64,000 nt of DNA from a virus (lineage: Duplodnaviria > Caudoviricetes), in IMG/VR virus record IMGVR_UViG_3300017963_000189. One strand, 5' to 3'. Shown one piece after another: positions 6,154 through 62,622 of the stretch. The translations under genes and the position numbers were made by a program. Every line of letters starts with the position of its first letter. The stretch's first letter is position 1. The notes below the pieces were generated by a model that saw nothing but the letters and a program-made list of their open reading frames with translations, had not been told where the DNA came from and did not search any database.

Positions 6154-6380
6154 TTCTCTACCTCTTTTTTATATGTCGCCTGACACACTCGACAACGATA
6201 TACAATAGTATAATCAAGATACTGCCCATCGTCGTCCTCTTTAATCTCCAAACACTTCTCCGTATATAAGTGTTCCTCTTTACAATTATGCTCGCCAACA
6301 TATCGGGGACGCGGAACTACATCCACGTGCCCGATTGTTAACCCCAAATCCCTTAATTTCTTGTACTCTTTACTCAACAT
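6150..6380 (-). CDS. hypothetical protein (start probably MLSK)
   Basis: ATG overlaps the PNK stop; CRVC motif. Confidence 0.5.
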   Translation of the reverse strand: MLSKEYKKLRDLGLTIGHVDVVPRPRYVGEHNCKEEHLYTEKCLEIKEDDDGQYLDYTIVYRCRVCQATYKKEVEK

Positions 6381-7431
6381 AAATAACCTTATTGAACTCA
6401 CTCTTTAAAGATTGTTCACCTTTCTTGAATAATTTATATTGTTTACGGATAATTGATTCCGGTACAACTGATCTATCAACTCCATTTTCTATATCCTTGT
6501 TTACTCGTTCTAATGAAGTTTCTACATCAGATTCAAATACAACGGCTATCTTTTGCGCACCATTGAAATCAGCCATAAACTCAACTCTCAACCATTTATT
6601 TACATTGGTAGCATCCAAATACACTTTACCATATCTACGTAACGCGACTTTCATTCTTATTTTCGCGGTTGGCCAAACTTCAGCATTCATAGATTGATCG
6701 GAAACATCACCGGTCAACTCTCTACGAATATCGTCTGGCGAAACAATGTATTTTGGATCAACATTTTTTAAATAACGAGATTTACCTGAACCAGATATTC
6801 CAACCATTACATATACCTTTTTACTGGAATGTCTTTGTTTGAAATATACCCACTTTTCTTTGATAACGTTTTTCAACCTATCAGACCAATCGGATTCTTT
6901 CAAATATAATTGTTTGGATATAACCTTGTCAGCGGTAATAAAATCATCTAAATCGGGATCATCTTGTAACTTCTTGTGACCCGGATTCAAATCCATATGT
7001 TTATCAATCATACGATAAGTTAAATCATAATGTTTGATTCTATTTTTTATAGATTCTAAATACTTTATAGATTCTTTTGGATGTCCAAAAGCATATATAC
7101 GATCATTACCTACATTAGTCTTAGTTCCCTTACCATAATCATGTAAAAAAGCTGCTTCTAACAAATCAGGACGTTTTAATTTCCATACAGCCATTACTAC
7201 ATAATAAGTGTGATAAAAAGCATCAAACTCAGGGTGATGGTTCAAACCTTGTGGAACGCCCTCTAAAGCGTTTACAACCTTAGCGGTAATATCATATTCA
7301 CGTAACGCTCTTTTCCATTCCTCTATATAAGTAGCATTAGTAACAATTCTACGTTGTGGATATTCACGAACAATCGCCCGTGAACATAACCAAGTTTCAA
7401 CCAATATGTTTTTTAAACTTTGTTGTGCCAT
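6370..7431 (-). CDS. HD-domain / polynucleotide kinase fusion (RNA end healing)
   Basis: HHPEFDAFYHT...AAFLHDYGK (CCA-enzyme-like HD domain) followed by P-loop VGISGSGKS, SPDDIR, LDATN. Confidence 0.8.
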   Translation of the reverse strand: MAQQSLKNILVETWLCSRAIVREYPQRRIVTNATYIEEWKRALREYDITAKVVNALEGVPQGLNHHPEFDAFYHTYYVVMAVWKLKRPDLLEAAFLHDYGKGTKTNVGNDRIYAFGHPKESIKYLESIKNRIKHYDLTYRMIDKHMDLNPGHKKLQDDPDLDDFITADKVISKQLYLKESDWSDRLKNVIKEKWVYFKQRHSSKKVYVMVGISGSGKSRYLKNVDPKYIVSPDDIRRELTGDVSDQSMNAEVWPTAKIRMKVALRRYGKVYLDATNVNKWLRVEFMADFNGAQKIAVVFESDVETSLERVNKDIENGVDRSVVPESIIRKQYKLFKKGEQSLKSEFNKVIYVE

Positions 7432-7453
7432 AATAACCTCTTTTCTTACCTAT

Positions 7454-7482
7454 AAGTTACAAAACTTTTTACTAAATGTCAA
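7454..7482 (-). promoter_or_regulatory. sigma70-type promoter (variant)
   Basis: AAAACAC-TTGACA-N17-TAACTT, 23 nt before the PNK start. Confidence 0.55.
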
Positions 7483-8080
7483 GTGTTTTTTTCAATATTT
7501 TTTCCTTTTCTAATACCTTATGTAACGCTTGTAAAATAAACAACTCATACTCTTTTCCTGCTCTCGCATACATATGAGTAATAACATTCTTTGGATCAAA
7601 ACCCTTTCGATATGGGCGATCCTGCGTCATAGCATCATAAACATCAACTATCGCTAATATCTGGGCGAGCCCGTTGAACTCCGTTCCCTTTAAACCATTT
7701 GGATAACCTGTACCATTCAACTTCTCATGATGTTGCTCAACTATCTCAGCTTCAGCATCCATACCAAGTGACCGTAAAATCGTAGCACTGTCTGATGGAT
7801 GTTGTTTGATACTCTCATATTCTTCGCCAGTTAATTTACCGGGTTTAAATAAAATACCCTTTGGTATCTTGATTTTTCCCACATCATGATAATACGCTGC
7901 ACGTGTTACCAGGTTCGCGGTTTTCAAGTCTAAACCCAACTCTTGGGCGACCATCTTAACAATCCTACCAACCCTTAAAGAATGTTTTTGGGTATAATCA
8001 GAGTCCTCTACGGCTTTCAGAAGACTCATTGTGATTAATACCCTTTGATAGTCTATTTCAAATTTAGTGTCCTTTGCCAT
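7472..8080 (-). CDS. HD-GYP cyclic-dinucleotide phosphodiesterase (stand-alone)
   Basis: YTQKHSLRV, YHDVGKIKIP, IKQHP, QHHEKLNGTGYPNGL, DVYDAMTQDRPYR. Confidence 0.9.
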   Translation of the reverse strand: MAKDTKFEIDYQRVLITMSLLKAVEDSDYTQKHSLRVGRIVKMVAQELGLDLKTANLVTRAAYYHDVGKIKIPKGILFKPGKLTGEEYESIKQHPSDSATILRSLGMDAEAEIVEQHHEKLNGTGYPNGLKGTEFNGLAQILAIVDVYDAMTQDRPYRKGFDPKNVITHMYARAGKEYELFILQALHKVLEKEKILKKTLDI

Positions 8081-9260
8081 TTATTTTCTCTACCAATAAA
8101 TTTTTTATTCGTTTTAATCCCTTTTGTTCGTACAATCCATGTATTACATCTATCGCCTTTAATTCAGGTTTATCTACCATAGTGAAAATAAATCCAACTC
8201 GATCACGTTTGATTTTATCTTGTATCTCTAACGCTAACTCTTTACGAGACATTTCAGGCGCTCTTTTTCTATAATACTCACCCTCTTTAGATAAATATTC
8301 AATCAATTCAAAATACCTTTTTTTCAACAACTTATATTCTTCTTTTACGGAATCAGGTAACTTGTCCAAATATACTTCAAATTCTTCTTCCTCGTTGTCC
8401 AATAAAACACCTACCAAGTTGTTAGTCACACCCTCGCCAGTAGCTACATGGTGTAAATGAACATACTTTGGCGACTTAACTTTTACTCGACCAACTACTA
8501 AATCATCTTTGAACTGAACAACTATAAATCCCTCAAATCCATTTCCCTTTTCATTCTCTTTATCAGCAATTTCAGATAATTCGGAAACATCCTTAACATC
8601 TTTCAAATCAAACAATCTTGGAAAACGTATAGAATATCCCTTGAACATCTTTTCGTATTTCTTCTTTATGGATTTATGGAATATATTAAAGTCACGTAAT
8701 TCACCATCGTTTTCTTTTAAACCAATGAAAACTAACTCTTTTACGCCTTCATAATCAACTACTATTTGATTTGATGGATGTACCAACTCAAACATATAAG
8801 TCAAATTTGGCGAAAATTCCGCAGTTAACTTTTCAAAATCTTCTTTAGAAACTACATCAAAGAAAATCTTGGAAAAAGAAATTCCATCCATATTAGACGC
8901 ATCATCAGCATCAATAGTTCCATTAGTTGCTACTCTCCATTCACCATCATAAAAATATACTTTTATAATAGAACCATCTACCTTTTCAACTACATAAGAA
9001 TCATCTAATATCAAATTGTAAGCATATATTTCACCGTAGTTGAAAAACTTATCAAATGGATGCGCAACTATATTCCAAGTTCCCTTTTCTAATATGATAC
9101 CACGAGATTCTTTTACAATCTTGTTAGAGAAATCGGAATTAAACTGATTATACTTGAATATAACTAAGTTATCCTTAGCATTAATATGCAAGTTGAACGG
9201 GTCTTTACGTAAATCATCTAAAGACCGTATTTTCAATATTTTTTGTAAGTTCAATTTCAC
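8064..9260 (-). CDS. RNA ligase (T4 Rnl1-like)
   Basis: ESRGIIL, PFDKFFN, motif I EKVDGS, FELV, EGFIV, RVKVK. Confidence 0.88.
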   Translation of the reverse strand: MKLNLQKILKIRSLDDLRKDPFNLHINAKDNLVIFKYNQFNSDFSNKIVKESRGIILEKGTWNIVAHPFDKFFNYGEIYAYNLILDDSYVVEKVDGSIIKVYFYDGEWRVATNGTIDADDASNMDGISFSKIFFDVVSKEDFEKLTAEFSPNLTYMFELVHPSNQIVVDYEGVKELVFIGLKENDGELRDFNIFHKSIKKKYEKMFKGYSIRFPRLFDLKDVKDVSELSEIADKENEKGNGFEGFIVVQFKDDLVVGRVKVKSPKYVHLHHVATGEGVTNNLVGVLLDNEEEEFEVYLDKLPDSVKEEYKLLKKRYFELIEYLSKEGEYYRKRAPEMSRKELALEIQDKIKRDRVGFIFTMVDKPELKAIDVIHGLYEQKGLKRIKNLLVEKINGKGH

Positions 9261-9286
9261 GTTATTTCTCCATTCATTTATACACC

Positions 9287-9315
9287 AATATACAAAATTA
9301 AAGTATAAATGTCAA
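9287..9315 (-). promoter_or_regulatory. sigma70-type promoter (repeat family)
   Basis: AATAACAG-TTGACA-N17-TATATT. Confidence 0.8.
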
Positions 9316-9569
9316 CTGTTATTTTTATTATTTACGCCTTGTTTCGGTTTTGATACATATTCTTCAAATAATTTTACAAGATCATCTTCACATCCTAATT
9401 CTTCAGCAAGTTCATCTAATTTTAATCCGCCCATACCACCTACAATACCACATAACATATTACCCCAAATATCGGCTACCTGTTGATCATGTTTCAAATG
9501 AACTTGTCTTTTAATTTCTACCTCTTTTTCATTTTCATCAAGATAGAATTTTTCTCGATCCTCACTCAT
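9312..9569 (-). CDS. hypothetical protein
   Basis: Tiling ORF. Confidence 0.5.
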   Translation of the reverse strand: MSEDREKFYLDENEKEVEIKRQVHLKHDQQVADIWGNMLCGIVGGMGGLKLDELAEELGCEDDLVKLFEEYVSKPKQGVNNKNNS

Positions 9570-9760
9570 TATACCAATGGAAGTTTACCGAATAACAGGA
9601 CGCCGTAATAGTTTAGAGTAACTAAAAGATTTACTACAAAAGCTACCCACATAAAAAATTTTATCAAGTTGTTAGCAACGCCTTTTTTATTCCAAAAATA
9701 CGCTGCTAAAAACAATAAAAATGTGTTTACGATTAAAACAATACCTAATAACATAACCAT
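9569..9760 (-). CDS. hypothetical membrane protein
   Basis: Two hydrophobic helices. Confidence 0.55.
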   Translation of the reverse strand: MVMLLGIVLIVNTFLLFLAAYFWNKKGVANNLIKFFMWVAFVVNLLVTLNYYGVLLFGKLPLV

Positions 9761-9767
9761 TCTCCTT

Positions 9768-10070
9768 TTACTTGTTTCGTTTTGCTGCTCTACGAGCTTT
9801 CTTTTTTTCTTTTAACGGGTCTTGACCCTTTTTTACTTTGAATTTTTTCTTACCACTTTTTGAATCTTTTAAAATAGCATCTTCAATCATATCTCTCAAA
9901 TCACCCGCATTATCAATTAATTTTTGAAGTCTTTTCCGTTCTTTCTGAGCCCCTTTACCTTTACCATATTTGAAATCAAGTTGATCTAATTTCTGAGCTG
10001 CGGATATTTTAACTCGTTCTTTTGCTCGTTCTAATGCTTCTTTTTTCTTTTGTTCTTTACTTTTCGCCAT
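9768..10070 (-). CDS. Lys-rich hypothetical protein
   Basis: 100-aa basic ORF. Confidence 0.6.
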   Translation of the reverse strand: MAKSKEQKKKEALERAKERVKISAAQKLDQLDFKYGKGKGAQKERKRLQKLIDNAGDLRDMIEDAILKDSKSGKKKFKVKKGQDPLKEKKKARRAAKRNK

Positions 10071-10337
10071 TTACATTACACCTTTTCTTTTCTTCTCTCT
10101 TGTAGTCCATATACGATCTAAAATGACCATAATAATTAGTAATACTCCAAATGTCAACCATCCAAATACTGCTGTAAATATATGTCCGATACAGATTGAT
10201 ATAATTATTGTAGCAATAACAAATAATATACATTGTCCATCTTCCATAAATATAACCCTTTCTTTTGTTTAGGTAAGCTGTTCCCTGGCCCCGTTAGTAA
10301 GTTTTACTACGCCCGGCAGAAAAAGTTCCCAACTTTT

Positions 10338-10664
10338 TCAGATTTTTCTATATTTATTTGCAAGTTTCTTTTGTCGTTTTGCTTCAATTTTTGCTTCCTC
10401 GATAACTCTAATATATTCCTTTAATGTTGTCCTATCATCAAGAGTAATCAAATCATATCCACTCAACATATCAATAAAATCACAGGCAGGAACATAACCT
10501 CTTTTCATATATATTTCGTCTACACATTCACGAGCATCAAGAAAATTCATTTGTTTTGACATTATCTTTCCTATCATCGCCAAAGTCGGCGTTACATAAT
10601 CTTGTGGATCATATAATTTACTTACTTCCGCTACATTAACACTAAAATATCTTGTTTTACTCAT
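10338..10664 (-). CDS. hypothetical protein (start uncertain)
   Basis: ORF-track start lies inside tRNA-Leu and the promoter; the next ATG abuts the -10 box, so the true start may be further downstream. Confidence 0.45.
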   Translation of the reverse strand: MSKTRYFSVNVAEVSKLYDPQDYVTPTLAMIGKIMSKQMNFLDARECVDEIYMKRGYVPACDFIDMLSGYDLITLDDRTTLKEYIRVIEEAKIEAKRQKKLANKYRKI

Positions 10665-11030: not shown

Positions 11031-11396
11031 CTACTCAACTTGTGAAATTTTCTCCAATACGTTTTCTACGTCATTTATCCCAAATCTTTTGTGTAAGAAA
11101 AAAACATAAGGATCATTGGACAATTCTGCAAGTGGAAATCCACTCATAAAAATTACCCTCAAATCATTTGATAATTCTCTTATCTTTTCATATACAACCA
11201 TTCCATTTACATCTGGCATCATCATATCGACAAATACCAAATCCAATTCATCTATATTCTTTTCGACCTTTTCTATTCCCTCAACGCCACCTAAGGCGAC
11301 AATAACCTCAATTCCTAACTCAAGTGATTCTAATATTTCTTGTAAATACTCGACCAATTCTTGTTCGTCGTCAATTATTAACACCAATTTCGCCAT
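11031..11396 (-). CDS. single-domain response regulator (REC)
   Basis: LIIDDE, LVFVDMMMPDVNG (phospho-Asp), IFMSG, LHK. Confidence 0.85.
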   Translation of the reverse strand: MAKLVLIIDDEQELVEYLQEILESLELGIEVIVALGGVEGIEKVEKNIDELDLVFVDMMMPDVNGMVVYEKIRELSNDLRVIFMSGFPLAELSNDPYVFFLHKRFGINDVENVLEKISQVE

Positions 11397-12970: not shown

Positions 12971-13435
12971 TTAAAAAAACTTATTTTTTCTTTCTTCCTC
13001 TACTTTTATTTCCTCTCGCAACTCCATTAAAAGTTTTCCTAACATATTATAGCCCGCTCCATCTTCATTTCTACCCCAAAAATAATCTGTTTTACTGTAC
13101 TCAACTATTTCTGCATTTCCGGTAGACAATAAAAGATTTCTCATACGATCTATCTTTTTGAATTTCGCCACAAGGGCTCGCCTCATAACTAATAACTTTA
13201 CTTCATTCCAATCACTTCTCAAAGGTAAATCGTCTCTACGACCCTCATGTGCAGCACCACCTGGCTTATCTTGATTTCGTATGTATTCTTCCCATTCAGT
13301 GCCTTCATATTTCTTAGATTGATAATAGTGTTCTGTACTTTTATAATCTCGACCATCAATAGTAATCGTTATAGGATAAAAATTACTAAACTCTCCAAAA
13401 GGCTCTTTAAGTTTCCTGAATATTATTTGTTTCAT
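12971..13435 (-). CDS. NADAR (YbiA/DUF1768) family protein
   Basis: FSNFY, STEHYYQSKK, RSDWNEVK..VM..AL.AKF, E.S..D.FWG, NMLGKLLMELR. Confidence 0.88.
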   Translation of the reverse strand: MKQIIFRKLKEPFGEFSNFYPITITIDGRDYKSTEHYYQSKKYEGTEWEEYIRNQDKPGGAAHEGRRDDLPLRSDWNEVKLLVMRRALVAKFKKIDRMRNLLLSTGNAEIVEYSKTDYFWGRNEDGAGYNMLGKLLMELREEIKVEEERKNKFF

Positions 13436-18098: not shown

Positions 18099-18518
18099 TT
18101 AGTTTAAATACCACATATACCAACTAAATACATTTAATAATAAAAAGGCGACCCACAAAATGACTTGTGACCATACTTTCTTTTTTATCGCCCAATAAAT
18201 CCAAAAAAAGTTTGATACTATCCATACTGGCCAACACCATATCACTTTTAATCCACATAATACAATCCCTATAAGTGAAAATGTAGTAGCAATACGACCT
18301 ATAATAGTTAACTTTTTCTTTTCTTTACCTTCCCAATCAAACTCTTTTAGGTTTACATTTCCTATCTTTACAGGATCAACTTTTTTAGTTTTCCCTACAG
18401 CCTTTTCTATTGTTTTTTTCGCTTGTGTTGCTGCGGCTTTATTCTTTTCTTCCTCAATTATTGGATCAAATGTTTTATCAAGTTCTTGTGTAAAATCATC
18501 TAAATTATCATCTGCCAT
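18099..18518 (-). CDS. membrane protein with short PnuC-like C-terminal domain
   Basis: TTFSLIGIVL...K.IWCWPVWIVSNFFW...K..WSQ.IL...F....SWYMW resembles short phage PnuC-like proteins. Confidence 0.45.
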   Translation of the reverse strand: MADDNLDDFTQELDKTFDPIIEEEKNKAAATQAKKTIEKAVGKTKKVDPVKIGNVNLKEFDWEGKEKKKLTIIGRIATTFSLIGIVLCGLKVIWCWPVWIVSNFFWIYWAIKKKVWSQVILWVAFLLLNVFSWYMWYLN

Positions 18519-18552
18519 ATAACCCCCTTGCGTTGATTTGTACATAACTAAG

Positions 18553-23233: not shown

Positions 23234-25495
23234 TTAAGTTCCATCTAATATTTCTCTTATCTTTCTCGCCAATGATGTCGGCGTCACAGGTTTCTGAATA
23301 AAATTAGTTCCAGGATCTAATACCCCACGATGAACTATTGTGTTATCGGTGTAACCGGACATATACAAAACTTTTAGATTTGGTATAAAATCACTTAACT
23401 GGATCGCAAGTTCTCTACCGTCCATTCTCGGCATCACGACATCAGTCACCAACATATTTATTTTTGTTTGATTATTTTTCATCACTTCTATAGCTTCAAT
23501 ACCATTGGACGCACAAATAACTTTATATCCCATATCTCTTAACGCGTCACAAAGTAATAGACGAACTTCTTTTTCATCTTCTACTAATAACAATGATTCA
23601 TTTCCACTATAATCTAATATCTCTCCATTTATTTGTATTTCGTTTTTTGTCTCTCTATCCACTCTTGGCAAATATACCTTGAACGCCGTTCCTTGTCCAA
23701 TCTCACTATATACCCAAACAAAACCACCACTTTGTTTTATTATTCCATACGCCGTAGACAATCCTAAACCAACTCCCTTACCCATTTCTTTTGTCGTAAA
23801 AAATGGTTCAAAGATTCTTTCTTTTGTCGCCATATCCATTCCAACACCATCATCCGTAACAGAAAACATTATGTAACGACCTTTATCAATCATCTTTTGT
23901 TTTCGTTCAACGTGATCTTCATCAAAATATATATTTTTTGTCTCAAGTCTAATCAATCCTACATCTTGTTCAGGTATAGCATCCCGAGCATTGATTATCA
24001 TATTCATCATAACCAAACTAATTTGATTGACATCAACAAAACAATTACCCAAATCAGGATCAAGATGTTTAGCGATTTCTATATCTTCTCTTATCAGTGT
24101 CGCCAAAACTTTTATTTCATTTTCAAGAATGTTATTTAAGTTAACAACTTCTGGCGTCAAAATTTGTTTTCTACTAAAAGCAAGAAGTTGTTTTGTAAGT
24201 GCCTCGGCTCTATCAGCCGCATTATCTATTTTTTCTAATTTTGTTTGTAAATATATATGTGGTTCTGTTTCAGGACATTTTTGACTTCTCCTAATAAGAA
24301 GTTCAGTGTGACCACGAATAACGGTAAGAATGTTATTGAAATCGTGAGCAACTCCACCCGCTAATAAACCAATAGCTTCCAATTTAGCAGCTTGTCGTAA
24401 TTGTTCTTCAAGATTTAATTTTTCTGATATATCATAAAAAATTACAAGTATAGATTGTTTATTTTTATATATTATTGGTTTAGCAACAACTTCAACATCT
24501 ATGATACTACCATCTTTTTTAAAGAATTTTTCGTCTAACGGTTCATTAGTTTCTCCTGTTTCTATCATATTTTTTATTCTTCCTTTAACAACACTTCTAT
24601 AATCAGGATGAACATAATCCATTACTTTGTCGCCAACCAAATCTTTATAATTGTCAGCTCCAATTAATTGACATGCAGCAGGATTGGCGAAAACAATCTC
24701 CATACTTTTTATATTGTAAACTATGATTGAAGATGGTAAAAGTTCCACTAAATCTTTATATTGTCTTTCAAGAGATTCAAGTTTTAGTTTTTCACTTATA
24801 TCATTGAACAAAACCATACTTGCTTTTTGATTCTTATAAGTTATTAATTTAGAAATCACTTCCATTTCAATAGCTTCTTTTTTATCATGTGATAAAAATT
24901 TCATTCTACTCGCTGGACAATATCCTTTTTCTTGTAATTCCTTTATTCGCCGTTTTCCTTCCTCAATAGAATCAGGATGGACGGATTCAAAAACACTTTC
25001 AGGTTTATCATCGTCCAATGGACGATTTATCATTTTTCTCGCTTGTTTGTTGGAAAATAATTTTTGTTTTGTTTTTAAACTATAAACTGCCATTCCGATT
25101 GGCAAAAGTTCAACTAAATCTTCATAGTATTGTTCTTTTTCTATTTGTTTAGTAATATCTATACCAAAACTTAAAAATGTATTATTTGGAGTTATTTCTG
25201 CAGAAAATAAACCATGACGTGTTTCACCATTTTTATGTAATATGGTAAACTCTCTATTTAATACTTTACCTTTTTCACGTAATTCATTACTAATCGCGAT
25301 CCGTTCTTCCGGATACTTCCACATATTAAATTCAAGAGAAGTTTTACCAATTATTTCTTCTCGTGCATAACCGGTCATTTCACAAAATAAATCATTTACT
25401 TTTATAAACTTTCCAGTGTCCAATTCGCTATATGCTACCGCAATAGGTAACGAACCATATACTTTATCAAATGAAATTGTTATATCGTCGTTCAA
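23234..25495 (-). CDS. hybrid sensor histidine kinase (3 PAS, HisKA, HATPase_c, REC), CckA-like architecture
   Basis: PAS motifs (VNDLFCEMTGY, VHPDS, ANPAA...VHPDY); H box AGGVAHDFNNIL; N box NARDAI; DDGVGMD; FEPFFTTK..GKGVGLGL; REC VEDE...TDVVMP...QKP. Confidence 0.92.
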   Translation of the reverse strand: MNDDITISFDKVYGSLPIAVAYSELDTGKFIKVNDLFCEMTGYAREEIIGKTSLEFNMWKYPEERIAISNELREKGKVLNREFTILHKNGETRHGLFSAEITPNNTFLSFGIDITKQIEKEQYYEDLVELLPIGMAVYSLKTKQKLFSNKQARKMINRPLDDDKPESVFESVHPDSIEEGKRRIKELQEKGYCPASRMKFLSHDKKEAIEMEVISKLITYKNQKASMVLFNDISEKLKLESLERQYKDLVELLPSSIIVYNIKSMEIVFANPAACQLIGADNYKDLVGDKVMDYVHPDYRSVVKGRIKNMIETGETNEPLDEKFFKKDGSIIDVEVVAKPIIYKNKQSILVIFYDISEKLNLEEQLRQAAKLEAIGLLAGGVAHDFNNILTVIRGHTELLIRRSQKCPETEPHIYLQTKLEKIDNAADRAEALTKQLLAFSRKQILTPEVVNLNNILENEIKVLATLIREDIEIAKHLDPDLGNCFVDVNQISLVMMNMIINARDAIPEQDVGLIRLETKNIYFDEDHVERKQKMIDKGRYIMFSVTDDGVGMDMATKERIFEPFFTTKEMGKGVGLGLSTAYGIIKQSGGFVWVYSEIGQGTAFKVYLPRVDRETKNEIQINGEILDYSGNESLLLVEDEKEVRLLLCDALRDMGYKVICASNGIEAIEVMKNNQTKINMLVTDVVMPRMDGRELAIQLSDFIPNLKVLYMSGYTDNTIVHRGVLDPGTNFIQKPVTPTSLARKIREILDGT

Positions 25496-28169: not shown

Positions 28170-28198
28170 AATATACAACATTTCGGAGTATTTGTCAA
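28170..28198 (-). promoter_or_regulatory. sigma70-type promoter (repeat family); its TGA is the upstream gene's stop
   Basis: CAGAAAACAG-TTGACA-N17-TATATT. Confidence 0.85.
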
Positions 28199-28743
28199 CT
28201 GTTTTCTGATTTATTTTTTACTAATTCGTTAGCGAACTTTCTAACTGACTCCCAATACAATAAATAGTCTGTTCTTCGTCTTTCTCTTATAGGATTTCGC
28301 CATCTTTCGTCAGGTCTATTATCTTGTCTCAACCAATGATAAATATCAGCCCACTCGGTTTCTGCATCAAATCCGGCTTTATCGTCCAAGTAAACATCAA
28401 AATATGGTTTATTTGTATAGTCACCATAATCGCCTTCACCTATCTCAGGATTATCATTTACATATTCAAACTCTATATTATGTAACGACAACAAATTAAT
28501 ATAGTGTCTTATTTGATCTTTATGTGAACAAGTATAAAGAATCGTCCTTATATCTGGGCGAGCCGTAAGTAATTGTAATGACGGTTTCGCCCATTCGTAA
28601 AAATCTAACTTGTTTACTAACTTTTCCTTGTGATTCGGACGTATGATCACACCATGCATGTCGATTAACCAATAGGTTTCATACCATTGTTGTCTCATTT
28701 GTTTATCATATTGACGATGTATAACGTCTATAATTGCTCCCAT
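28195..28743 (-). CDS. HAD-like protein translationally coupled to pncA
   Basis: LIDMHGVI, LYTCS, KPYFDVYLDDKAGF. Confidence 0.6.
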   Translation of the reverse strand: MGAIIDVIHRQYDKQMRQQWYETYWLIDMHGVIIRPNHKEKLVNKLDFYEWAKPSLQLLTARPDIRTILYTCSHKDQIRHYINLLSLHNIEFEYVNDNPEIGEGDYGDYTNKPYFDVYLDDKAGFDAETEWADIYHWLRQDNRPDERWRNPIRERRRTDYLLYWESVRKFANELVKNKSENS

Positions 28744-29363
28744 TAATATCTTTCCTCAATAACATTTGAAACAATCAACTCAACATCATTTTCCTGCATT
28801 TCTATCAAAGCATCATCCGCTCCATCAAGACCCGCAACACCATCAACAACAACATAAGTTATAAATCCCAAACTTTCAGCATCAAGAGCTGTAAACTTTA
28901 CACAATAGTCTGTCGCCAAACCAACAATATAAACTTCGTCAATCGCTTGATCATCTAAAATGTCACATAAATCTGTTTCAAACAATTTACCATTGTCAAA
29001 AAATCCACTGTAAGAATCTACTTCGGGATTCGTTCCTTTTACAACATATTCATTAATCCATTCTAAATGTAAATCCTTATGTAATTCAGCACCGTTTGTT
29101 CCTTGAACACAGTGATCCGGCCACAAAACTTGTTCTACACCATTTAAATTAATAACATCAAACAACATACTGCCTTCATGACTTGACGCAAATGACTTAT
29201 GACCCTCAGGATGCCAATCTTTCGTGGCGACAATTAAATCCCAATCAACGTTTGCGGTAAGTTTATTTACAACAGGAATGATTTTTCCGGCGTTCGGTAC
29301 TTCCAATGATCCGCCTTCCATAAAATCATTTTGAATGTCTACTAAAATCAAAGCTTTTCTCAT
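28743..29363 (-). CDS. pncA: nicotinamidase
   Basis: LVDIQNDF..GGSL, DWHP..H.SF, WPDHCVQGT, KG..P.VDSYSGF, GLATDYCVK.TALDA. Confidence 0.93.
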   Translation of the reverse strand: MRKALILVDIQNDFMEGGSLEVPNAGKIIPVVNKLTANVDWDLIVATKDWHPEGHKSFASSHEGSMLFDVINLNGVEQVLWPDHCVQGTNGAELHKDLHLEWINEYVVKGTNPEVDSYSGFFDNGKLFETDLCDILDDQAIDEVYIVGLATDYCVKFTALDAESLGFITYVVVDGVAGLDGADDALIEMQENDVELIVSNVIEERY

Positions 29364-29366
29364 ATC

Positions 29367-30113
29367 TTACCTCCTGTATATCGGTGGATATTTAGTTTTA
29401 TGTTCATTTATCCTAATCATTTTCTTTACTTTTTCAATCTTATCGGCATGATCAATAGGATATTCTTTACCGGTTTCAAGATAATATAGAATAGAATCTA
29501 ATACATCATAACTCATTCCAATATCTTTTTCATCAGTCTGCCCTTCCCAAAGAGCAGCAGTAGGCGTTCTCTCAACCAAATCGTCGGGAATACCTAAGTT
29601 TCTCGCCATCCCTTTTACTTCCCACTTGTAATATTCTGCTATCGGAAGCACATCAACTCCACCATCACCGTATTTAGTAAAATATCCAATCATATCTTCA
29701 CTCTTATTTCCGGTTCCGGCGACCAACATATTATTTTTTCCAGCGACAGCATAAAGGAAAGTCATTCTCAATCTTGCTCTTATATTCGCTTGTTCTAACC
29801 TACCCAACAAAATCGGAGCTTCCTCGACCATCGCGTTATATGTTTCTCTCATATCATAAAAGACAGTTTCAATACCAAGAAGTTTAGCAACTCTATCAGC
29901 GTCAAGTTCATCTTGTTCACCAGAATAAATCGGCATAATAACACCAATAACATTTTCTTTACCAACGGCTTTTACCGCGAGAGCGGCGACAAGAGTAGAA
30001 TCAATACCACCACTCAAACCAACGACATAACCATTAGTTCCAGAAATAGTATTATAATTCTCTAACCAACTTGCAATGTCTTTTATTTCCGGTTCAAAAT
30101 TAAGATTACTCAT
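29367..30113 (-). CDS. nadE: NH3-dependent NAD+ synthetase
   Basis: GLSGGIDS, ANIRARLRM, GTGNKSE, GYFTKYGDG, PTAALWEGQTDE; no glutaminase domain. Confidence 0.93.
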   Translation of the reverse strand: MSNLNFEPEIKDIASWLENYNTISGTNGYVVGLSGGIDSTLVAALAVKAVGKENVIGVIMPIYSGEQDELDADRVAKLLGIETVFYDMRETYNAMVEEAPILLGRLEQANIRARLRMTFLYAVAGKNNMLVAGTGNKSEDMIGYFTKYGDGGVDVLPIAEYYKWEVKGMARNLGIPDDLVERTPTAALWEGQTDEKDIGMSYDVLDSILYYLETGKEYPIDHADKIEKVKKMIRINEHKTKYPPIYRR

Positions 30114-30141
30114 TTATATACCTTTCTTTATGTACTTTCTT

Positions 30142-30170
30142 AATATACAAAATTAAGTTCACTTTGTCAA
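30142..30170 (-). promoter_or_regulatory. sigma70-type promoter (repeat family); its TGA is the pncB stop
   Basis: GAAAACAG-TTGACA-N17-TATATT. Confidence 0.85.
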
Positions 30171-31345
30171 CTGTTTTCTATAATTCTTTTCGCTAAATCT
30201 ATCATTTCAGGATCACCGGTGTGTTTTCCCTCAACATCACTCAACTTGATTGTCGGTATCCATTTTTTACCTTGTGGTTTAGCAGAAACCATCTTGATAA
30301 CAATATTCAATGGAGTAACATCAGGAATATCATTAGAAAGATTAGTTCCCATTCCATATGAAATTTTAATTCTACCATGTCCAAAATGACTATTTATTCT
30401 TTCAATTTCCTTTGGATTCAACCCATCGGAGAATACAATCGTTTTAGTTCTTGGATCAATACCAAGTTTCTTGTAATGTTCAATAGCTCTTTTTCCAAAC
30501 TCAATAGGATCACCAGAATCGTGTCTAACACCATCAAATAATTTAGCATACATTGTGTCAAACGATCCAAAAAAATTCTTTGTGGTGAAAGTGTCCGTGA
30601 GTGCTATACCCAACTCTCCATTATAAACATCGACCCAACGACCAAGAGCAACAGCGTTTGCTTGATGAAAACCATATTTCGCAGCGTGAAACATAAACCA
30701 TTCATGAGCTTGTGTTCCAATAGGTTTTATTCCATACTTACGAGCTAAGTGGACATTACTTGTACCAACAAAATGATTTGATTTACTAAATGTTCTAACC
30801 ATTCTACTTTGACTCTTGTAAGAATGTCGCCGTCTTGTTCCAAAATCGGCTAAACTTATAGTAGGTACTAAATCAAATAAGAAATCTCTTTTTGATTCAT
30901 TATGATTTTCTATATCTCCCCAATGTACATTACCAATACCTTTACCGGTATGAATGAAATAAAGTTCTGAAATCAAAGCCATAAGCGGAACTTCCCATAA
31001 GATTGTTCTATACCATAATCCCTCAATCTCTACTGAAAGTTCACCATCATTCCAAAAAATCTTTATTTCATCAGCGTTATAGCGATAACCTTTCAGGAAA
31101 TCTATATAAACAGGATCAAAGAAATAAAGGTTTTCTCTCAAATAATCTTCCTCACCATCGGTAAGAAAAAGTTTTTCCATATCCCAAACCATGTCGCCCA
31201 AATCCTTAGCAACTGCTTCAGGAATGTAAGTTTTCCCACGATTGAAAAACTTATACTTTACTTCGGCACGCGGGTACAACTTCGTAACTGCGTTCTGCAT
31301 TGTAAACTTATATAAATCATTGTCTAAAATAGATTTGATTAACAT
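30167..31345 (-). CDS. pncB: nicotinate phosphoribosyltransferase
   Basis: ILDNDLYKFTM, DFGTRRR, GTSNV, GTQAHEWFM, RHDSGDP, FSDGL, GMGTNL, KLSD..GKHTG. Confidence 0.93.
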   Translation of the reverse strand: MLIKSILDNDLYKFTMQNAVTKLYPRAEVKYKFFNRGKTYIPEAVAKDLGDMVWDMEKLFLTDGEEDYLRENLYFFDPVYIDFLKGYRYNADEIKIFWNDGELSVEIEGLWYRTILWEVPLMALISELYFIHTGKGIGNVHWGDIENHNESKRDFLFDLVPTISLADFGTRRRHSYKSQSRMVRTFSKSNHFVGTSNVHLARKYGIKPIGTQAHEWFMFHAAKYGFHQANAVALGRWVDVYNGELGIALTDTFTTKNFFGSFDTMYAKLFDGVRHDSGDPIEFGKRAIEHYKKLGIDPRTKTIVFSDGLNPKEIERINSHFGHGRIKISYGMGTNLSNDIPDVTPLNIVIKMVSAKPQGKKWIPTIKLSDVEGKHTGDPEMIDLAKRIIENS

Positions 31346-31354
31346 TATAACCTC

Positions 31355-32227
31355 TTAAAATATTAGTGAACCTTTATCATCCCATTTGGTATAAATCTTA
31401 CCATCTTCTCGGATGATCATATATTTCAAAACATTTTTCATTTCTTTACTCATACAATCATCGTCCACCACCGTAGAAATTCCCTCAACCGAATACTTCA
31501 TAGCTCCAAAGGGTAATCTTTCCAACTCGTGACCATGATATTTAATATAATTAATAATCGTTTTCAACGTTTCCTTTTTAGCAGCATTTTCCACAATCCA
31601 TTTGTCTTGTTTTGTATCTTCATCACTTGTATACAACTTTCTAAAAGTAACTTGATCAACTTCCATTTCAATTAATCTATTGAAGATTCTTTTTACATAA
31701 ACATCGTCATATATATCAGTAAGATTGATAGACAACCTTACATTAAAATTCATTTTCTTTAAATTATCAACAACATAACTAATATCAACTTGTCGATCTA
31801 TAGGCATAACCATTATATCAGCATTATTGTTAGAATCAAAAATATCTACTACACTCAAACTAATAGTGGAAATATCCTCAAACCAATCGGCATAAAGTTC
31901 AATTACTTCCAACAAACCAACACTACTTGCAATACCACTTGTTTGTAACTCAATCCACTTAAAAGGGCTACTCAAATTACGATTTATACTAAGAATATCA
32001 ACTACCGCATCCATATTATCAAGAGGCTCACCGGTTGAAGTCAACATTAAAGTGTTAGTTCCATTATCCCTTGCAAACTCCATACGTTTCTTTACGTTTC
32101 TCAAATATTGAAGTCTGTCCTCGGATTTTTTAAACTTTCTATTCTCTTTGTTCATGTGAGAAACACAAAAAGGACATCTATTAGGACATTTAGCTGGGAT
32201 AACGATTGATAAACTTTGTACTTCCAC
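31355..32227 (-). CDS. radical SAM protein
   Basis: CPNRCPFC (CX3CX2C), TSTGEP, ELQTSG. Confidence 0.85.
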   Translation of the reverse strand: MEVQSLSIVIPAKCPNRCPFCVSHMNKENRKFKKSEDRLQYLRNVKKRMEFARDNGTNTLMLTSTGEPLDNMDAVVDILSINRNLSSPFKWIELQTSGIASSVGLLEVIELYADWFEDISTISLSVVDIFDSNNNADIMVMPIDRQVDISYVVDNLKKMNFNVRLSINLTDIYDDVYVKRIFNRLIEMEVDQVTFRKLYTSDEDTKQDKWIVENAAKKETLKTIINYIKYHGHELERLPFGAMKYSVEGISTVVDDDCMSKEMKNVLKYMIIREDGKIYTKWDDKGSLIF

Positions 32228-32257
32228 TCTATAACCTTTCTCTTTTTAAACTACCTA

Positions 32258-32286
32258 AATATACGAAATAAATGTGGATTTGTCAA
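32258..32286 (-). promoter_or_regulatory. sigma70-type promoter (repeat family); its TGA is the nadD stop
   Basis: CAGAAAACAG-TTGACA-N17-TATATT. Confidence 0.85.
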
Positions 32287-32927
32287 CTGTTTTCTGATCT
32301 TTTTTCATATAATTTATGTTCTCTAATGTAGTTTAAAACCTTACGGGGCAAGTATCTTCCTGCAACGGTAACTCCACTTTTCAACCAATTACGTACCAAT
32401 GTTGCTGATAAACTATTCCGTTTTACATCAATTACGATAATCTTATTAATGTTTTTTGATAGAATAGGATTAGAACTAATAATTTTTGCAATATCATCTG
32501 TACCTCTACCAATAACTACAAGGCTCGCCATTTCAAAAATCTTTTCTGGTTGTTTCCAATTATGAAATTCTTTTAGATTATCACTCCCCATAACGAAGAA
32601 CAACTCACTTTCTCTAAACATATTTTTATATCGGCGTAACAGCTCATATGTATACATTTTTCCAAATGAAAGAGCATCTACTCCACCAACACTATAAATA
32701 CATCCATCAATCGGAGCACTATCATCGAAAATTTCCTGAATCATATTGATTCTATGTTCGACATCTTCTAAACCATTTTTGTCATATTCATTATTTGTTG
32801 GCTCAAACATTAACCAACTTAGACTTAATTTTTTCGCCACTAATTCAGCAATCTGAACGTGCGCAGTTGTTATCGGATTGAATGATCCGCCATAAATACC
32901 AACTTTACCCGTCAATCTCTGTGTCAT
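32283..32927 (-). CDS. nadD: nicotinate/nicotinamide-nucleotide adenylyltransferase
   Basis: GGSFNPITTAH, HRINM, YTYE.L, FVMGSDNL..FH.W, SATLVR. Confidence 0.9.
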   Translation of the reverse strand: MTQRLTGKVGIYGGSFNPITTAHVQIAELVAKKLSLSWLMFEPTNNEYDKNGLEDVEHRINMIQEIFDDSAPIDGCIYSVGGVDALSFGKMYTYELLRRYKNMFRESELFFVMGSDNLKEFHNWKQPEKIFEMASLVVIGRGTDDIAKIISSNPILSKNINKIIVIDVKRNSLSATLVRNWLKSGVTVAGRYLPRKVLNYIREHKLYEKRSENS

Positions 32928-33282
32928 CTGGTAACTCCACTTCTATTAAATCCAATATAAAATACCATGATTCATTCCTATCTTCTTCTGATACTTGAGC
33001 CAACAACTTACCTGCTTCTTCTGGCGAAATCCTAAACGTTACTCGATTTCCATGATTATATAAAAAAGGAATAAGTTCAGATACATCAGCATCCATCGCT
33101 ATAAACTCAAGTAACAATGAATACAAATCTAAATCCCATACACATTGACCCAACTCTTTGGCTTGTTCTTGAACAAATTCAACAAACTTGTCCTCGTCTA
33201 TACATGAATCATATACCCATGAATCAAGTTCATTAACATCTTCAATCGACAAACCTAACAATTTTTCCATCCATTTATCCAT
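32905..33282 (-). CDS. acidic hypothetical protein
   Basis: Overlaps the nadD start; ATATTTATA upstream. Confidence 0.55.
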   Translation of the reverse strand: MDKWMEKLLGLSIEDVNELDSWVYDSCIDEDKFVEFVQEQAKELGQCVWDLDLYSLLLEFIAMDADVSELIPFLYNHGNRVTFRISPEEAGKLLAQVSEEDRNESWYFILDLIEVELPDDTEIDG

Positions 33283-33349: not shown

Positions 33350-33592
33350 TTATGGTAATTCACATCCCACTTCTGTAATCTCAGTTTGTAACCCTAAATA
33401 CTCAAGTTTGTCTTTCATTTCAATAGCTTTTTCTTTGTCAATGTTCTCTACTATCGGACAAGAACCATTTACGTGAGTGATTAAAGTAAATGATTGAGCT
33501 TCGTCAAGTTCCAAACCGCATACTTCCATCAGTGCCATCTGCACATCCGAGTGATGATTTACATCGTCATTGATTAGGTGTAAACTATACAT
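33350..33592 (-). CDS. clpS: ClpS-like N-degron adaptor
   Basis: LHLINDDVN...V..AL.EVCG....EA....L.TH.NG......KE.A......L...GL..EI. Confidence 0.7.
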   Translation of the reverse strand: MYSLHLINDDVNHHSDVQMALMEVCGLELDEAQSFTLITHVNGSCPIVENIDKEKAIEMKDKLEYLGLQTEITEVGCELP

Positions 33593-35093: not shown

Positions 35094-35122
35094 AATATAC
35101 GAAAAAACGGCGTCTTTGTCAA
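35094..35122 (-). promoter_or_regulatory. sigma70-type promoter (repeat family)
   Basis: AAAACAG-TTGACA-N17-TATATT. Confidence 0.85.
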
Positions 35123-47433: not shown

Positions 47434-48678
47434 TTATTTAACAAGATTCATTCTTTTAATTGAACGATTACTACTTGTACTCAATACATAAAAATAAGTT
47501 CCACTCGCTAACTCACTACCATCAAAATCTACGGAATAACTACCAACATTCAATCGACCATTAACTAATACTTCAACAACCCTACCCTGAATGTCATATA
47601 CAACTAACTTAACATTGTCGGTATTAGGAATACTAAATTCAATCGTAGTGTTCGGATTAAATGGATTCGGATAGTTTTGAAAAACATTAAACTCAATAGG
47701 AATGTCGCCTAACGTCTCAATAGAATTTGGTTCTTCTACCTTTGGTTCGGTTAACGGACTCTCGTAGGCACCTAAATCAGGTAACCCAGGACCACATCTC
47801 GGATTTCCCTCTATATCTAATTCGGGAGCATAATACATCGTTGAATCAACTAATATGGAATCAACTCCAGCTCCAATAGCGGATGAATAATCACTTAAAT
47901 GATAATCGTTGTTTTCAAGTGAAACAAACACTGTGTCGCCCAATGTCTCACCGAATGGGGCATAAATCGAATTTGATATTGTCGCTTCTCCATCATGTGC
48001 GTTTAAAGTAACACTTTTTGTAATAATAGAATTGATAACTGTTATCTTTAATCTACTCTTGTCGGTTTCTTGATAGCCTTCAATCGGACCGGTAACAGTT
48101 GAATTCATAATAATAGAATGAAAAACTTCCTTTGGTTCTTTACGTTCACTCTCACTATAAAGATAAATACCAGTATAAAAATCAAGTCCATAAACTATAC
48201 TATTCGTCATTTCAGTAGAAGTAGATATGAAAGCAACTCCGGCGAAATGATTTGAATTCACAATAAGATTGCGTAATTTACAAGAAATGTTTTCATTAAA
48301 ATTATTAGACATACATAAAACTTGAGCGCCATAGTCTTCAAATCCCCAACTAATTGCTCTACCCCCTTTAATAGTAAATCCAATTACTTCACTACTATCA
48401 GCTTGTACCCATAATGCTTCGCCAGAACCTAAATCACCATCAATAATTGTATTCAAAATATGAAAATATCTGGCGTCCAATATAAATTCTGAAGCTAAAA
48501 CAATACTCTTGTTAAGTATAACATTTGAGTATGTTCCATCACGAACGATTATTGTATCACCATCTGCTACGGAATCAATAGCCGTTTGAATCGTCGGATA
48601 ATTATCCGGTACATATACCGTTTCACCAAACGATAACGACACTAAAACTAAACTTAACAAAATAACTAAATACTTCAT
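47434..48678 (-). CDS. secreted beta-helix (pectin-lyase-like) protein with T9SS-type C-terminal sorting-like domain
   Basis: Signal peptide MKYLV...SLSFG-E; VPDNYPTIQTAID...GDTIIVRDGTY; DYHLSDYSSAIGAG; C-terminal FQNYPNPFNPNTTIEF...VYDIQGRVV..L...ASGTYFYVL...KRMNLVK. Confidence 0.85.
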   Translation of the reverse strand: MKYLVILLSLVLVSLSFGETVYVPDNYPTIQTAIDSVADGDTIIVRDGTYSNVILNKSIVLASEFILDARYFHILNTIIDGDLGSGEALWVQADSSEVIGFTIKGGRAISWGFEDYGAQVLCMSNNFNENISCKLRNLIVNSNHFAGVAFISTSTEMTNSIVYGLDFYTGIYLYSESERKEPKEVFHSIIMNSTVTGPIEGYQETDKSRLKITVINSIITKSVTLNAHDGEATISNSIYAPFGETLGDTVFVSLENNDYHLSDYSSAIGAGVDSILVDSTMYYAPELDIEGNPRCGPGLPDLGAYESPLTEPKVEEPNSIETLGDIPIEFNVFQNYPNPFNPNTTIEFSIPNTDNVKLVVYDIQGRVVEVLVNGRLNVGSYSVDFDGSELASGTYFYVLSTSSNRSIKRMNLVK

Positions 48679-48697
48679 AATATAACCCTTTCTTTGT

Positions 48698-48961
48698 TTA
48701 TTTACTTTCATCTAATATATTATCTATATACCAAATATCTGCTTCGGTAATCGGATCAAATTCTTCCTTGAAATATTTACGACCAAATGAATCTTCTATA
48801 TATCCACTTTCGCCCACATTCCACTGATCACGAAACATCAATCCATCATATTCTTCCTGAGTAATGTATATCCGCATCCAGAATCGCGGTGGTACATCAT
48901 ACATCGCTTTTACATACCTGTACTTCTGTCCTCGGTATTCCATCTTAAACTCCATATCCAT
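48698..48961 (-). CDS. hypothetical protein
   Basis: Tiling ORF. Confidence 0.55.
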   Translation of the reverse strand: MDMEFKMEYRGQKYRYVKAMYDVPPRFWMRIYITQEEYDGLMFRDQWNVGESGYIEDSFGRKYFKEEFDPITEADIWYIDNILDESK

Positions 48962-51483: not shown

Positions 51484-52098
51484 TTACCTCTGTAATACTA
51501 ACTTCTTAGTGTCTCTAAAATACGTTGTCGTCATTTGATAAAAATATACACCACTCGATACCTGTTCACCATTATCATTCCTACCATCCCACCGTATCTT
51601 GTAATGTCCTATATCCTTACTCTCGTCAACTAAAACCCTAACCTTGTTCCCTAACATATCATAAACTACTATCGTTACACTCGTGTTCTTTGCTATACTA
51701 TACTCAATCGTCGTTATGGGATTAAACGGGTTCAGATAATTTTGAGATAAATCATACGATTTATCTCCGTCATTATCCTCACCAACAATTCGTGTAACTG
51801 TCGTGCTGACTTCATTCGACGGCCCACTCTCTAATACATTTAAAGAATCATCATGATATACTGCTGTGACTTTCCAATAATATGTCTCTCCCTCTGTAAT
51901 CTGGTAATCATAATAAAAGGAATCTAAACCCGCTACATTATCTAAATATACCATCGTTCCTGCTTGTATATCCCTATACATCCTATAATCAATAAGTGTA
52001 TAATTTGGATCATTAGGTGGCGTCCACTCTAAATGTATATATTCCTGAGAAAATAACCCTTGACTTAATAAAAATAAAAATATTAATAATTTTCTCAA
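51484..52098 (-). CDS. secreted FN3-domain protein with FlgD-Ig/T9SS-type C-terminal domain
   Basis: Signal peptide; LEWTPP...Y.MYR...YYD...GETYYWKVTAVY...ESGPSNEV; LSQNYLNPFNPITTIEY...WDGRND.G.QVSSGVYFY...TKKLVLQR. Confidence 0.85.
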   Translation of the reverse strand: MRKLLIFLFLLSQGLFSQEYIHLEWTPPNDPNYTLIDYRMYRDIQAGTMVYLDNVAGLDSFYYDYQITEGETYYWKVTAVYHDDSLNVLESGPSNEVSTTVTRIVGEDNDGDKSYDLSQNYLNPFNPITTIEYSIAKNTSVTIVVYDMLGNKVRVLVDESKDIGHYKIRWDGRNDNGEQVSSGVYFYQMTTTYFRDTKKLVLQR

Positions 52099-62593: not shown

Positions 62594-62622
62594 AATATAC
62601 GAAATTATTTCGTATTTGTCAA
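62594..62622 (-). promoter_or_regulatory. sigma70-type promoter (repeat family)
   Basis: TTGACA-N17-TATATT. Confidence 0.75.

Follow-up and report, generated by a model that had tools for sequence, protein, structure and literature searches.

A predicted complete Preiss-Handler NAD+ salvage cluster in a jumbo phage, with Ignavibacteriota-like PncB and PncA

Phage-encoded routes to NAD+

The depletion of NAD+ (nicotinamide adenine dinucleotide) is a widespread anti-phage strategy of bacteria, and three routes by which phages rebuild this molecule (NARP1, NARP2 and NARP3) have been demonstrated in experiments. The obvious candidate that remains is the deamidated route with four steps, known as the Preiss-Handler pathway, which appears to be common in very large phages. 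A cluster of this type is described here, located at positions 28195-32927 of a 64,000-nucleotide stretch of viral DNA (hereafter the window) from the IMG/VR record IMGVR_UViG_3300017963_000189. The window corresponds to positions 213188-277187 of a metagenome contig of 309,378 bp. Judging from the family scores and motifs of its genes, the locus is a real and intact phage-encoded pathway, predicted to lead from nicotinamide to NAD+, and of a kind that has already been catalogued. What this locus adds is the presence of a PncB and a PncA similar to those of Ignavibacteriota, with nadD and nadE added only in the phage, and the recurrence of a radical S-adenosylmethionine (SAM) gene as a neighbour of pncB. 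The cluster represents a compact, complete and promoter-equipped example, which could be synthesised directly.

NARP2 (Nampt plus Nmnat, of the Vibrio phage KVP40 type; Osterman et al. 2024) starts from the same materials as the pathway encoded in the window, namely nicotinamide, phosphoribosyl pyrophosphate (PRPP) and ATP, and neither of them needs ADP-ribose (ADPR). Since nicotinamide is the only piece of NAD+ required, the route should, like NARP2, work whatever happens to the ADP-ribose half, and it should be unaffected by defences that alter this half, such as aRES, which makes ADPR-1P. However, NARP2 consists of two steps through the amidated intermediate nicotinamide mononucleotide (NMN), whereas the locus would use four, passing through nicotinate, nicotinate mononucleotide (NaMN) and nicotinate adenine dinucleotide (NaAD). 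The enzymes belong to other families (PncA, PncB, NadD and NadE), and the ATP cost is higher.

NARP3 (PnuC plus NadR; Yan et al. 2026, Sci Adv, PMC13464706) is also built from ordinary bacterial NAD salvage enzymes, which restore NAD+ when carried by a phage. In contrast to the locus analysed here, which would recycle internal nicotinamide, NARP3 imports nicotinamide riboside and depends on an external supply. An earlier note on this DNA, made from the letters alone, had put the cluster forward as a candidate third NAD-reconstitution system, a count that the publication of NARP3 has overtaken. The same note had recognised neither the NARP1 nor the NARP2 enzyme pair, and this holds true for the genes with a Pfam annotation, the range of which is about positions 1-58,700 of the window. 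For NARP1, neither a PRPP-synthetase-like gene (PRPS-like Adps) nor a second phosphoribosyltransferase was found among these genes. For NARP2, no Nampt (NadV) was found in the window, in which the only phosphoribosyltransferase is of the PncB type by curated models. For NARP3, there is no NadR in the window, and the match to PnuC is partial. This match corresponds to a 148-aa open reading frame (ORF) at 18099-18545 on the minus strand, which covers positions 110-173 of 175 only of the PnuC/NMN-transporter profile (E 4e-8). The N-terminal half of this ORF is charged and its C-terminal part hydrophobic, and rather than a full transporter it is a fragment or a shortened derivative.

Preiss-Handler clusters have been described in jumbo phages by Li et al. 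2024 (Microbiome, PMC11662467), who found a complete salvage or Preiss-Handler pathway in 174 of 668 jumbo phages from the gut. These authors described pncB-nadD-nadE clusters (e.g., Kuafu_71), mentioned the presence of pncA in phages, and suggested a counter-defence role pending experiments. Consequently, neither the clusters nor the proposal of counter-defence is as new as the earlier note had supposed. These NAD-jumbo phages share with the phage analysed here the jumbo genome, the clustering of pncB, nadD and nadE, a self-sufficient route from nicotinate to NAD, and a role against NAD+ depletion that is proposed only. The name is given to phages with more than 200 kb and every step of one or more NAD+ pathways, and this contig agrees with it in size and in the presence of all four Preiss-Handler steps. 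Compared with the Kuafu_71 type, the cluster adds pncA and thus starts from nicotinamide, the actual product of NADases. Moreover, a radical SAM gene and a haloacid dehalogenase (HAD)-like gene are interleaved with the NAD genes, and three promoter cassettes are present. The samples also differ, being marine or sediment in this case and gut in the case of the NAD-jumbo phages, and PncB is sister to that of Ignavibacteriota.

A further example is found in Bacillus phage G, a cultured jumbo phage of 497 kb, in which PncB-like, NadD-like and NadE genes lie within ~5 kb (gp277-gp283). This set differs from the one in the window in that the proteins are 25-34% identical, there is no pncA match, and an RNA 2'-phosphotransferase is annotated in the cluster. 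The deamidated route is mentioned neither in Iyer et al. 2022 nor in the NARP1/2 preprint, and the literature searches yielded no experimental study on a phage PncA or PncB and nothing relevant on "NARP4".

The four NAD enzymes

The four enzymes were assigned to their families by comparing Pfam and NCBIfam profile scores with the curated cut-offs, and their motifs were located by alignment to solved enzymes. PncA reaches 219.7 bits with NF008623 (cut-off 174), and the solved protein most similar to it is the nicotinamidase 2wt9 (E 1e-47). The alignment of both proteins reveals the Asp-Lys-Cys triad at D9, K109 and C154, along with the metal ligands D49/H51 and H84. PncB scores 456.2 bits with NF003704 (cut-off 379) and 407 bits with TIGR01514 (cut-off 269.6), with 2im5 as best solved relative (E 6e-95), and it holds the sequence GTQAHEW at residues 210-216, where the conserved His of the GTxxHEW segment is kept.

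NadD exhibits 134.8 bits with TIGR00482 (cut-off 112.45) and a match to PF01467, and its best solved relative is a bacterial NadD chain, 2h29 (E 2.7e-23). The two nucleotide-binding motifs of this family appear as GGSFNPITTAH at residues 13-23 and SATLVR at 174-179. Finally, NadE scores 267.9 bits with NF010587 (cut-off 255), matches PF02540 (E 1e-73), and contains an SGGIDS PP-loop at residues 34-39. Among solved proteins, it is most similar to the NH3-dependent NAD synthetase 2e18 (E 1.5e-51). NadE is assigned to the NH3-dependent type because it is a protein of 248 aa with a single PP-loop domain and no glutaminase domain.

The profile searches proposed in the earlier note have therefore confirmed PncA, PncB, NadD and NadE, all of them above the curated cut-offs and with their motif residues kept, in agreement with its description of four intact genes with diagnostic motifs. 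Taken together, the four genes are predicted to encode the complete deamidated route from nicotinamide to NAD that the note had recognised.

Cluster layout and promoter cassettes

According to the ORF list, positions 28195-32927 hold six co-oriented ORFs, arranged head to tail on the minus strand in the order nadD, radical SAM gene, pncB, nadE, pncA and HAD-like gene. The earlier note was right about a co-oriented cluster, but not about a cluster of four genes, since the radical SAM gene and the HAD-like gene had been overlooked within the same interval. The features of the cluster and its edges, in the direction of transcription, are the following:

35094-35122, minus strand: promoter-like cassette (TTGACA-17-TATATT), upstream of a series of small ORFs, which are followed by orf125 and nadD
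32905-33282, minus strand: orf125, the end of which overlaps the start of nadD by 23 nt
32283-32927, minus strand: nadD, 214 aa
32258-32286, minus strand: promoter-like cassette in overlap with the stop codon of nadD; candidate promoter of the radical SAM gene and pncB
31355-32227, minus strand: radical SAM gene, 290 aa, GTG start
30167-31345, minus strand: pncB, 392 aa
30142-30170, minus strand: promoter-like cassette in overlap with the stop codon of pncB; candidate promoter of nadE, pncA and the HAD-like gene
29367-30113, minus strand: nadE, 248 aa
28743-29363, minus strand: pncA, 206 aa
28195-28743, minus strand: HAD-like gene, 182 aa, the start of which overlaps the pncA stop codon
28170-28198, minus strand: promoter-like cassette in overlap with the end (stop codon) of the HAD-like gene; candidate promoter of the next unit (orf117)

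Only 9 nt separate the end of the radical SAM gene from the start of pncB. The product of orf125 has no Pfam, NCBIfam or PHROG match, and the gene is kept beside nadD in one of the relatives (L009), with 70% identity.

The sequence TTGACA-N16-18-TATAWT appears 18 times in the window, always on the minus (coding) strand, versus 0.38 copies expected from shuffled sequences. Three of these copies are found inside the cluster or at its edges, which bears out the internal copies of a strong promoter reported in the earlier note. The whole cassette comprises ~45 nt, with a longer consensus that is roughly AGAAAACAGTTGACAAA...ATTTnGTATATTATAGTA, also written AGAAAACAGTTGACAAA...GTATATTATAGTA. The cassettes end 28-40 nt before the start codons; in the case of the one at 32258-32286, the distance from the end of the -10 element to the GTG start of the radical SAM gene is 30 nt. 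The upstream arm, rich in A, often forms the last codons of the gene that precedes it, and for this reason NadD, PncB and the HAD-like protein all terminate in ...ENS.

Because of their likeness to sigma-70 sites, the cassettes would function as active early promoters. As nadD, pncB and the HAD-like gene all have a stop codon overlapped by a cassette, the cluster consists of three promoter-bounded units, the first with nadD and the preceding small ORFs, the second with the radical SAM gene and pncB, and the third with nadE, pncA and the HAD-like gene. These elements are similar to the mobile early-promoter cassettes known from T4-type phages, and they may mark units that undergo shuffling. Other copies of the cassette are located, also on the minus strand, at 119-147, 9287-9315 and 62594-62622.

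Conservation and variants in other phages

The order of the six genes is kept in three further metagenome contigs, with protein identities of 66-78%. In other relatives, the arrangement varies: pncB-nadE-pncA-nadD is found in locus L016 and pncB-nadE-nadD in locus L017, while the phage LR756501 exhibits pncB-HAD-like-nadE, with pncA 6 kb away. Another variant, nadE-pncA-...-radical SAM-pncB without nadD, is found in IMGVR_UViG_3300027899_000001 (L131/G003), a complete genome of 405 kb with terminal repeats, in which no NadD-family match was found anywhere in the genome. This makes nadD the dispensable step in such clusters.

A megablast search with the cluster as query gave no match in 50,697 phage records, so that relatives in this collection are found at the protein level only. 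The records with protein matches amount to 16 for PncB-like, 10 for PncA-like, 16 for NadD-like and 51 for NadE-like proteins, many of them being unverified fragments. In this collection, pncA, pncB and nadE are clearly combined only in LR756501/03, leaving aside the multi-contig record of Acinetobacter phage MD-2021a, which states no host and in which the matches to the three genes are on different contigs or tens of kb apart. In the 735-kb LR756501.1, the genes mentioned above are located in the region 422257-439429 (L001). As Li et al. 2024 attribute to this phage only nadD, its genome may in fact contain the complete Preiss-Handler pathway.

Proposed role of the cluster during infection

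It is proposed that this phage-borne Preiss-Handler salvage pathway keeps or rebuilds the NAD+ of the infected cell from nicotinamide, offsetting the losses caused by NADase defences of the host and by the phage's own NAD consumption. We assign to this proposal a probability of about 0.7. The cluster belongs to the early-type accessory region of a jumbo phage with 309 kb or more, and the sigma-70-like cassettes that precede its units imply that the enzymes would be made early and in quantity. According to the established chemistry of the four families, PncA would first convert nicotinamide into nicotinate and NH3. PncB would then use nicotinate and PRPP to produce NaMN, which NadD would adenylate to NaAD. 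In the last step, NadE would amidate NaAD to yield NAD+, and for this purpose it could reuse the NH3 freed by PncA. In this manner, the pathway would compensate for the NAD+ lost both to the effectors of host defences and to the NAD-consuming enzymes of the phage.

There is precedent for a counter-defence role, as NARP2 and NARP3 consist of ordinary salvage enzymes that overcome NADase defences when encoded by a phage. This role, which had already been proposed by Li et al. 2024 for Preiss-Handler clusters, is a reasonable hypothesis for the cluster in the window. The additional idea that deamidated intermediates might escape NADases is speculation.

Several observations weigh against the proposal of a pathway that counteracts NAD+ loss. 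Escherichia coli and Bacillus subtilis own all four enzymes, yet NADase defences work. The fact that a host may already have these enzymes means that any benefit for the phage would require a flux much higher than that of the host, and would depend on high expression. The route is also costly for a depleted cell, since it consumes PRPP and 2 ATP, and a third ATP if PncB couples hydrolysis, which exceeds the ATP cost of NARP1 or NARP2. In the case of NadD, the sequence T-T-A-H replaces H-x-G-H, with the first His being Thr, and the preference of the enzyme for NaMN or NMN is unreadable from its sequence. Nicotinamide is known to inhibit SIR2-type enzymes, as illustrated by Pnc1 and Sir2 of yeast, and by clearing nicotinamide PncA could thus speed up such NADases. 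The claim of the earlier note that PncA helps by removing the NADase product is unsupported as it was stated, because this product inhibition makes the effect cut both ways. Finally, no assay of activity, expression or defence was found in the literature searched for any phage Preiss-Handler cluster.

A different explanation is that the cluster is a purely metabolic auxiliary module without any specific role against NADase immunity, which would cover the large NAD+ demand of biosynthesis in a jumbo phage and that of its NAD-consuming enzymes, or would complement a host with weak salvage. This possibility is considered less likely, even though many phage enzymes that consume NAD accompany such clusters, an observation with which a general supply role is equally compatible. 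In jumbo phages, genes for at least 15 kinds of NAD-consuming enzymes have been found beside NAD-synthesis genes, and the phage pathways complement those of the host (PMC11662467). A metabolic function would also be in line with the frequency of nadE alone in cyanophages and Pelagibacter phages, and with a route that is slow and costly in comparison with NARP1 and NARP2. Nevertheless, the genes in the window are located behind early-type promoters and in an accessory region that also contains a NADAR gene, and NADAR is a domain family that, as indicated in PMC11825919, phages use against DarT-type ADP-ribosylation. Moreover, the metabolic and the counter-defence roles are compatible with each other.

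The radical SAM gene before pncB

The radical SAM neighbour of pncB is the sole unexplained element of the cluster, and it could yield new chemistry. Its product matches PF04055 (E 1.7e-9) and contains the CX3CX2C motif at C14/C18/C21, an Fe-S motif that would be lost with the gene call of 266 aa made in one assembly. The protein is included in a family of more than 1080 members of ~290 aa, many of them encoded on contigs of 100-500 kb. In the family alignment, CX3CX2C is invariant, as are several Arg, Lys and aromatic residues, while C258 is the only invariant Cys outside this motif, in disagreement with the second, C-terminal Fe-S cluster that characterises MoaA.

The AlphaFold model of the protein (mean pLDDT, the confidence score of the prediction, 85.7) is most similar to viperin-like enzymes and MoaA, with template modelling (TM) scores of 0.63-0.70. 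However, the protein is far below the cut-offs of both families (15 bits versus 180 for viperin NF038283, and 18 versus 284 for MoaA TIGR02666), and the likeness of the model to these enzymes is at the fold level only. A sequence search of solved structures gave nothing meaningful for this protein.

The linkage between this family and NAD genes was surveyed in 80 viral IMG/VR loci with a radical SAM family member (L053-L132), by recording the NAD genes within 5 kb. At least one of pncA, pncB and nadE was found at this distance in 21 of the 80 loci, and pncB in 15, usually directly after the radical SAM gene. For the HAD-like family, used as a control, NAD genes are nearby in 3 of 80 loci (Fisher p ~9e-5 per locus). 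The NAD-linked radical SAM members are distributed in up to four clades, although well-supported branches force one change only, and a crude test of the linkage at the clade level was not significant. With only one forced origin, inherited gene order may explain the linkage.

If the radical SAM enzyme were part of the pathway, the unit formed by this gene and pncB would synthesise or salvage a modified nucleotide, of the pyridine type or another, and the locus would be more than a plain Preiss-Handler salvage cluster. The candidate products include an NAD analogue that NADases cannot cleave and a dehydrated nucleotide of the viperin type; the enzyme might produce or repair a pyridine nucleotide in modified form, or act on another precursor to yield a substrate of PncB. 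Such a module would be a new kind of NAD-centred counter-defence, and not a copy of host salvage. The short distance to pncB within the same promoter-bounded unit, the excess of NAD genes over the control family, the distribution of the linked members in up to four clades, and an adjacency to pncB that holds although the PncB lineages differ are all consistent with this hypothesis, as is the predicted fold, given that viperin and MoaA act on nucleoside triphosphates. Despite this, it is regarded as improbable, because approximately three quarters of the family loci have no nearby NAD gene, the linkage has one forced origin and fails the test at the clade level, the canonical pathway has no radical SAM step, and the scores for viperin and MoaA are so low.

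Phage origin and likely host

Regarding the phage-borne salvage pathway, the possibility raised in the earlier note that the locus might be host chromosome was checked, and the evidence points to a phage. A second sample yielded the same stretch in a separate assembly, on a contig of 97.8 kb. The window consists almost entirely of small ORFs on one strand, with a uniform GC content of 31-36%, and it includes 7 tRNAs, a T4 RnlA-type RNA ligase and other PHROG matches, and a PhageMetallopep domain. The nearest relatives of PncB in the phage collection are encoded by the huge phages LR756501/03 (735 kb) and LR756500, and those in IMG/VR by viral contigs of up to 317 kb. Two sequencing runs contain the sequence, both of them of DNA and labelled as sediment and seawater metagenomes, and they may be its source; no RNA run was found among the runs that contain it.

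It is very improbable that the locus is bacterial chromosome or a mis-assembled junction, for although the sequence comes from a metagenome assembly and encodes a PncB and a PncA 55-60% identical to Ignavibacteriota proteins, the arrangement was assembled independently in several samples (309-kb and 97.8-kb contigs), the ORFs are small, dense and on one strand, with phage-type promoters flanking and inside the cluster, the GC content does not change across the window, the neighbours are phage-like, and the relatives are classed as viral in IMG/VR, including the complete genome of 405 kb with terminal repeats.

The closest cellular PncBs (58-60% identity) are those of Ignavibacteriales and Melioribacteraceae. 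In the Ignavibacteriota/Melioribacteraceae loci L030, L031, L037 and L050, pncB is directly followed by pncA, which encodes a protein 55-60% identical to the PncA of the phage. In contrast, nadE sits between both genes in the phage. No nadD was found within ~6 kb in any of the bacterial loci compared, and a nadE-like gene was found only in two Pseudomonadota loci (L039 and L040), so that the Ignavibacteriota pair lacks both genes within this distance. Neither the radical SAM gene nor the HAD-like gene was found in the bacterial pncB loci. The existence of this pair without nearby nadD or nadE argues for the assembly of the four-gene set in the phage. The comparison between phage and host operons suggested in the earlier note has thus been run, and it yields a pncB-pncA pair in the host loci and the full set as a phage construction.

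In a maximum-likelihood tree, the PncB of the window and two phage relatives form the sister group of an Ignavibacteriota clade, with support values of 96/95. As this tree is rooted at the midpoint only, it does not give the direction of transfer. The phage PncBs appear in at least two, and most simply four, separate placements, which suggests repeated acquisition. In addition, two proteins of the window, encoded at 47434-48711 and 51484-52098 on the minus strand, contain Por_Secre_tail, the C-terminal sorting domain of type IX secretion, which fits a host from Bacteroidota or Ignavibacteriota. The host probably belongs to the Ignavibacteriota/Bacteroidota group.

The HAD-like gene

The HAD-like protein matches phrog_1238 (E 3.7e-11), a group for which the PHROGs label "phosphoheptose isomerase" looks like a misnomer. 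In the alignment of its family (A1), motif I consists of an invariant D28-x-H30 in place of the DxD usual in HAD phosphatases, the motifs II-IV of which hold Ser/Thr, Lys and Asp; S73, K112 and D121 are conserved in the family. The AlphaFold model (pLDDT 90.6) has its best fold match in 2obb (BT_0820), a cap-less HAD protein, with a TM score of 0.71 by target. The score with NF046079 is 21 bits versus a cut-off of 165, and a sequence search of solved structures gave nothing meaningful for this protein.

Members of this family are widespread among phages and in most cases show no linkage to NAD genes; in LR756501, the huge phage of 735 kb, pncB is followed by a homologue. The HAD-like gene was rejected as a regular part of the pathway, on the basis of the 3 of 80 family loci near NAD genes mentioned above and of the unrelated contexts of its distant members. 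The identity of the protein with Tad3, which according to a review is an inhibitor that binds ThsB, was also rejected, as both proteins share the HAD fold only (TM 0.51 by query and 0.29 by hit). A third candidate, the aRES/Adpp phosphatase, was discarded as an analogue, because Adpp is a Macro-domain protein and therefore unrelated to the HAD-like protein.

Other genes in the window and in related loci

Other genes in the window might be of interest. A stand-alone NADAR-domain protein (PF08719, E 3e-33) is encoded at 12971-13435 on the minus strand, and represents another gene related to NAD or ADP-ribose in the same accessory region. A NADAR gene is also found near a distant relative of the radical SAM gene (L028). 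Just upstream of the NAD cluster, at 33350-33592 (minus strand), there is a gene for an 80-aa ClpS-like adaptor (PF02617, E 5e-9), which is absent at the same position in a related contig.

The window also encodes a hybrid histidine kinase of 753 aa, with PAS domains, HisKA, HATPase and a receiver (23234-25495, minus strand), and, ~12 kb from it, a single-domain response regulator (~11031-11396, minus strand). In one of the related viral contigs (L082), a gene for a TonB-dependent outer-membrane receptor is located at 8613-10583, ~1 kb downstream of pncB. Lastly, the T4 RnlA-type RNA ligase of the window is encoded in a row with an HD-domain protein and an AAA_33 kinase-like protein at 6370-9260 on the minus strand, and these three genes likely constitute an RNA-repair set.

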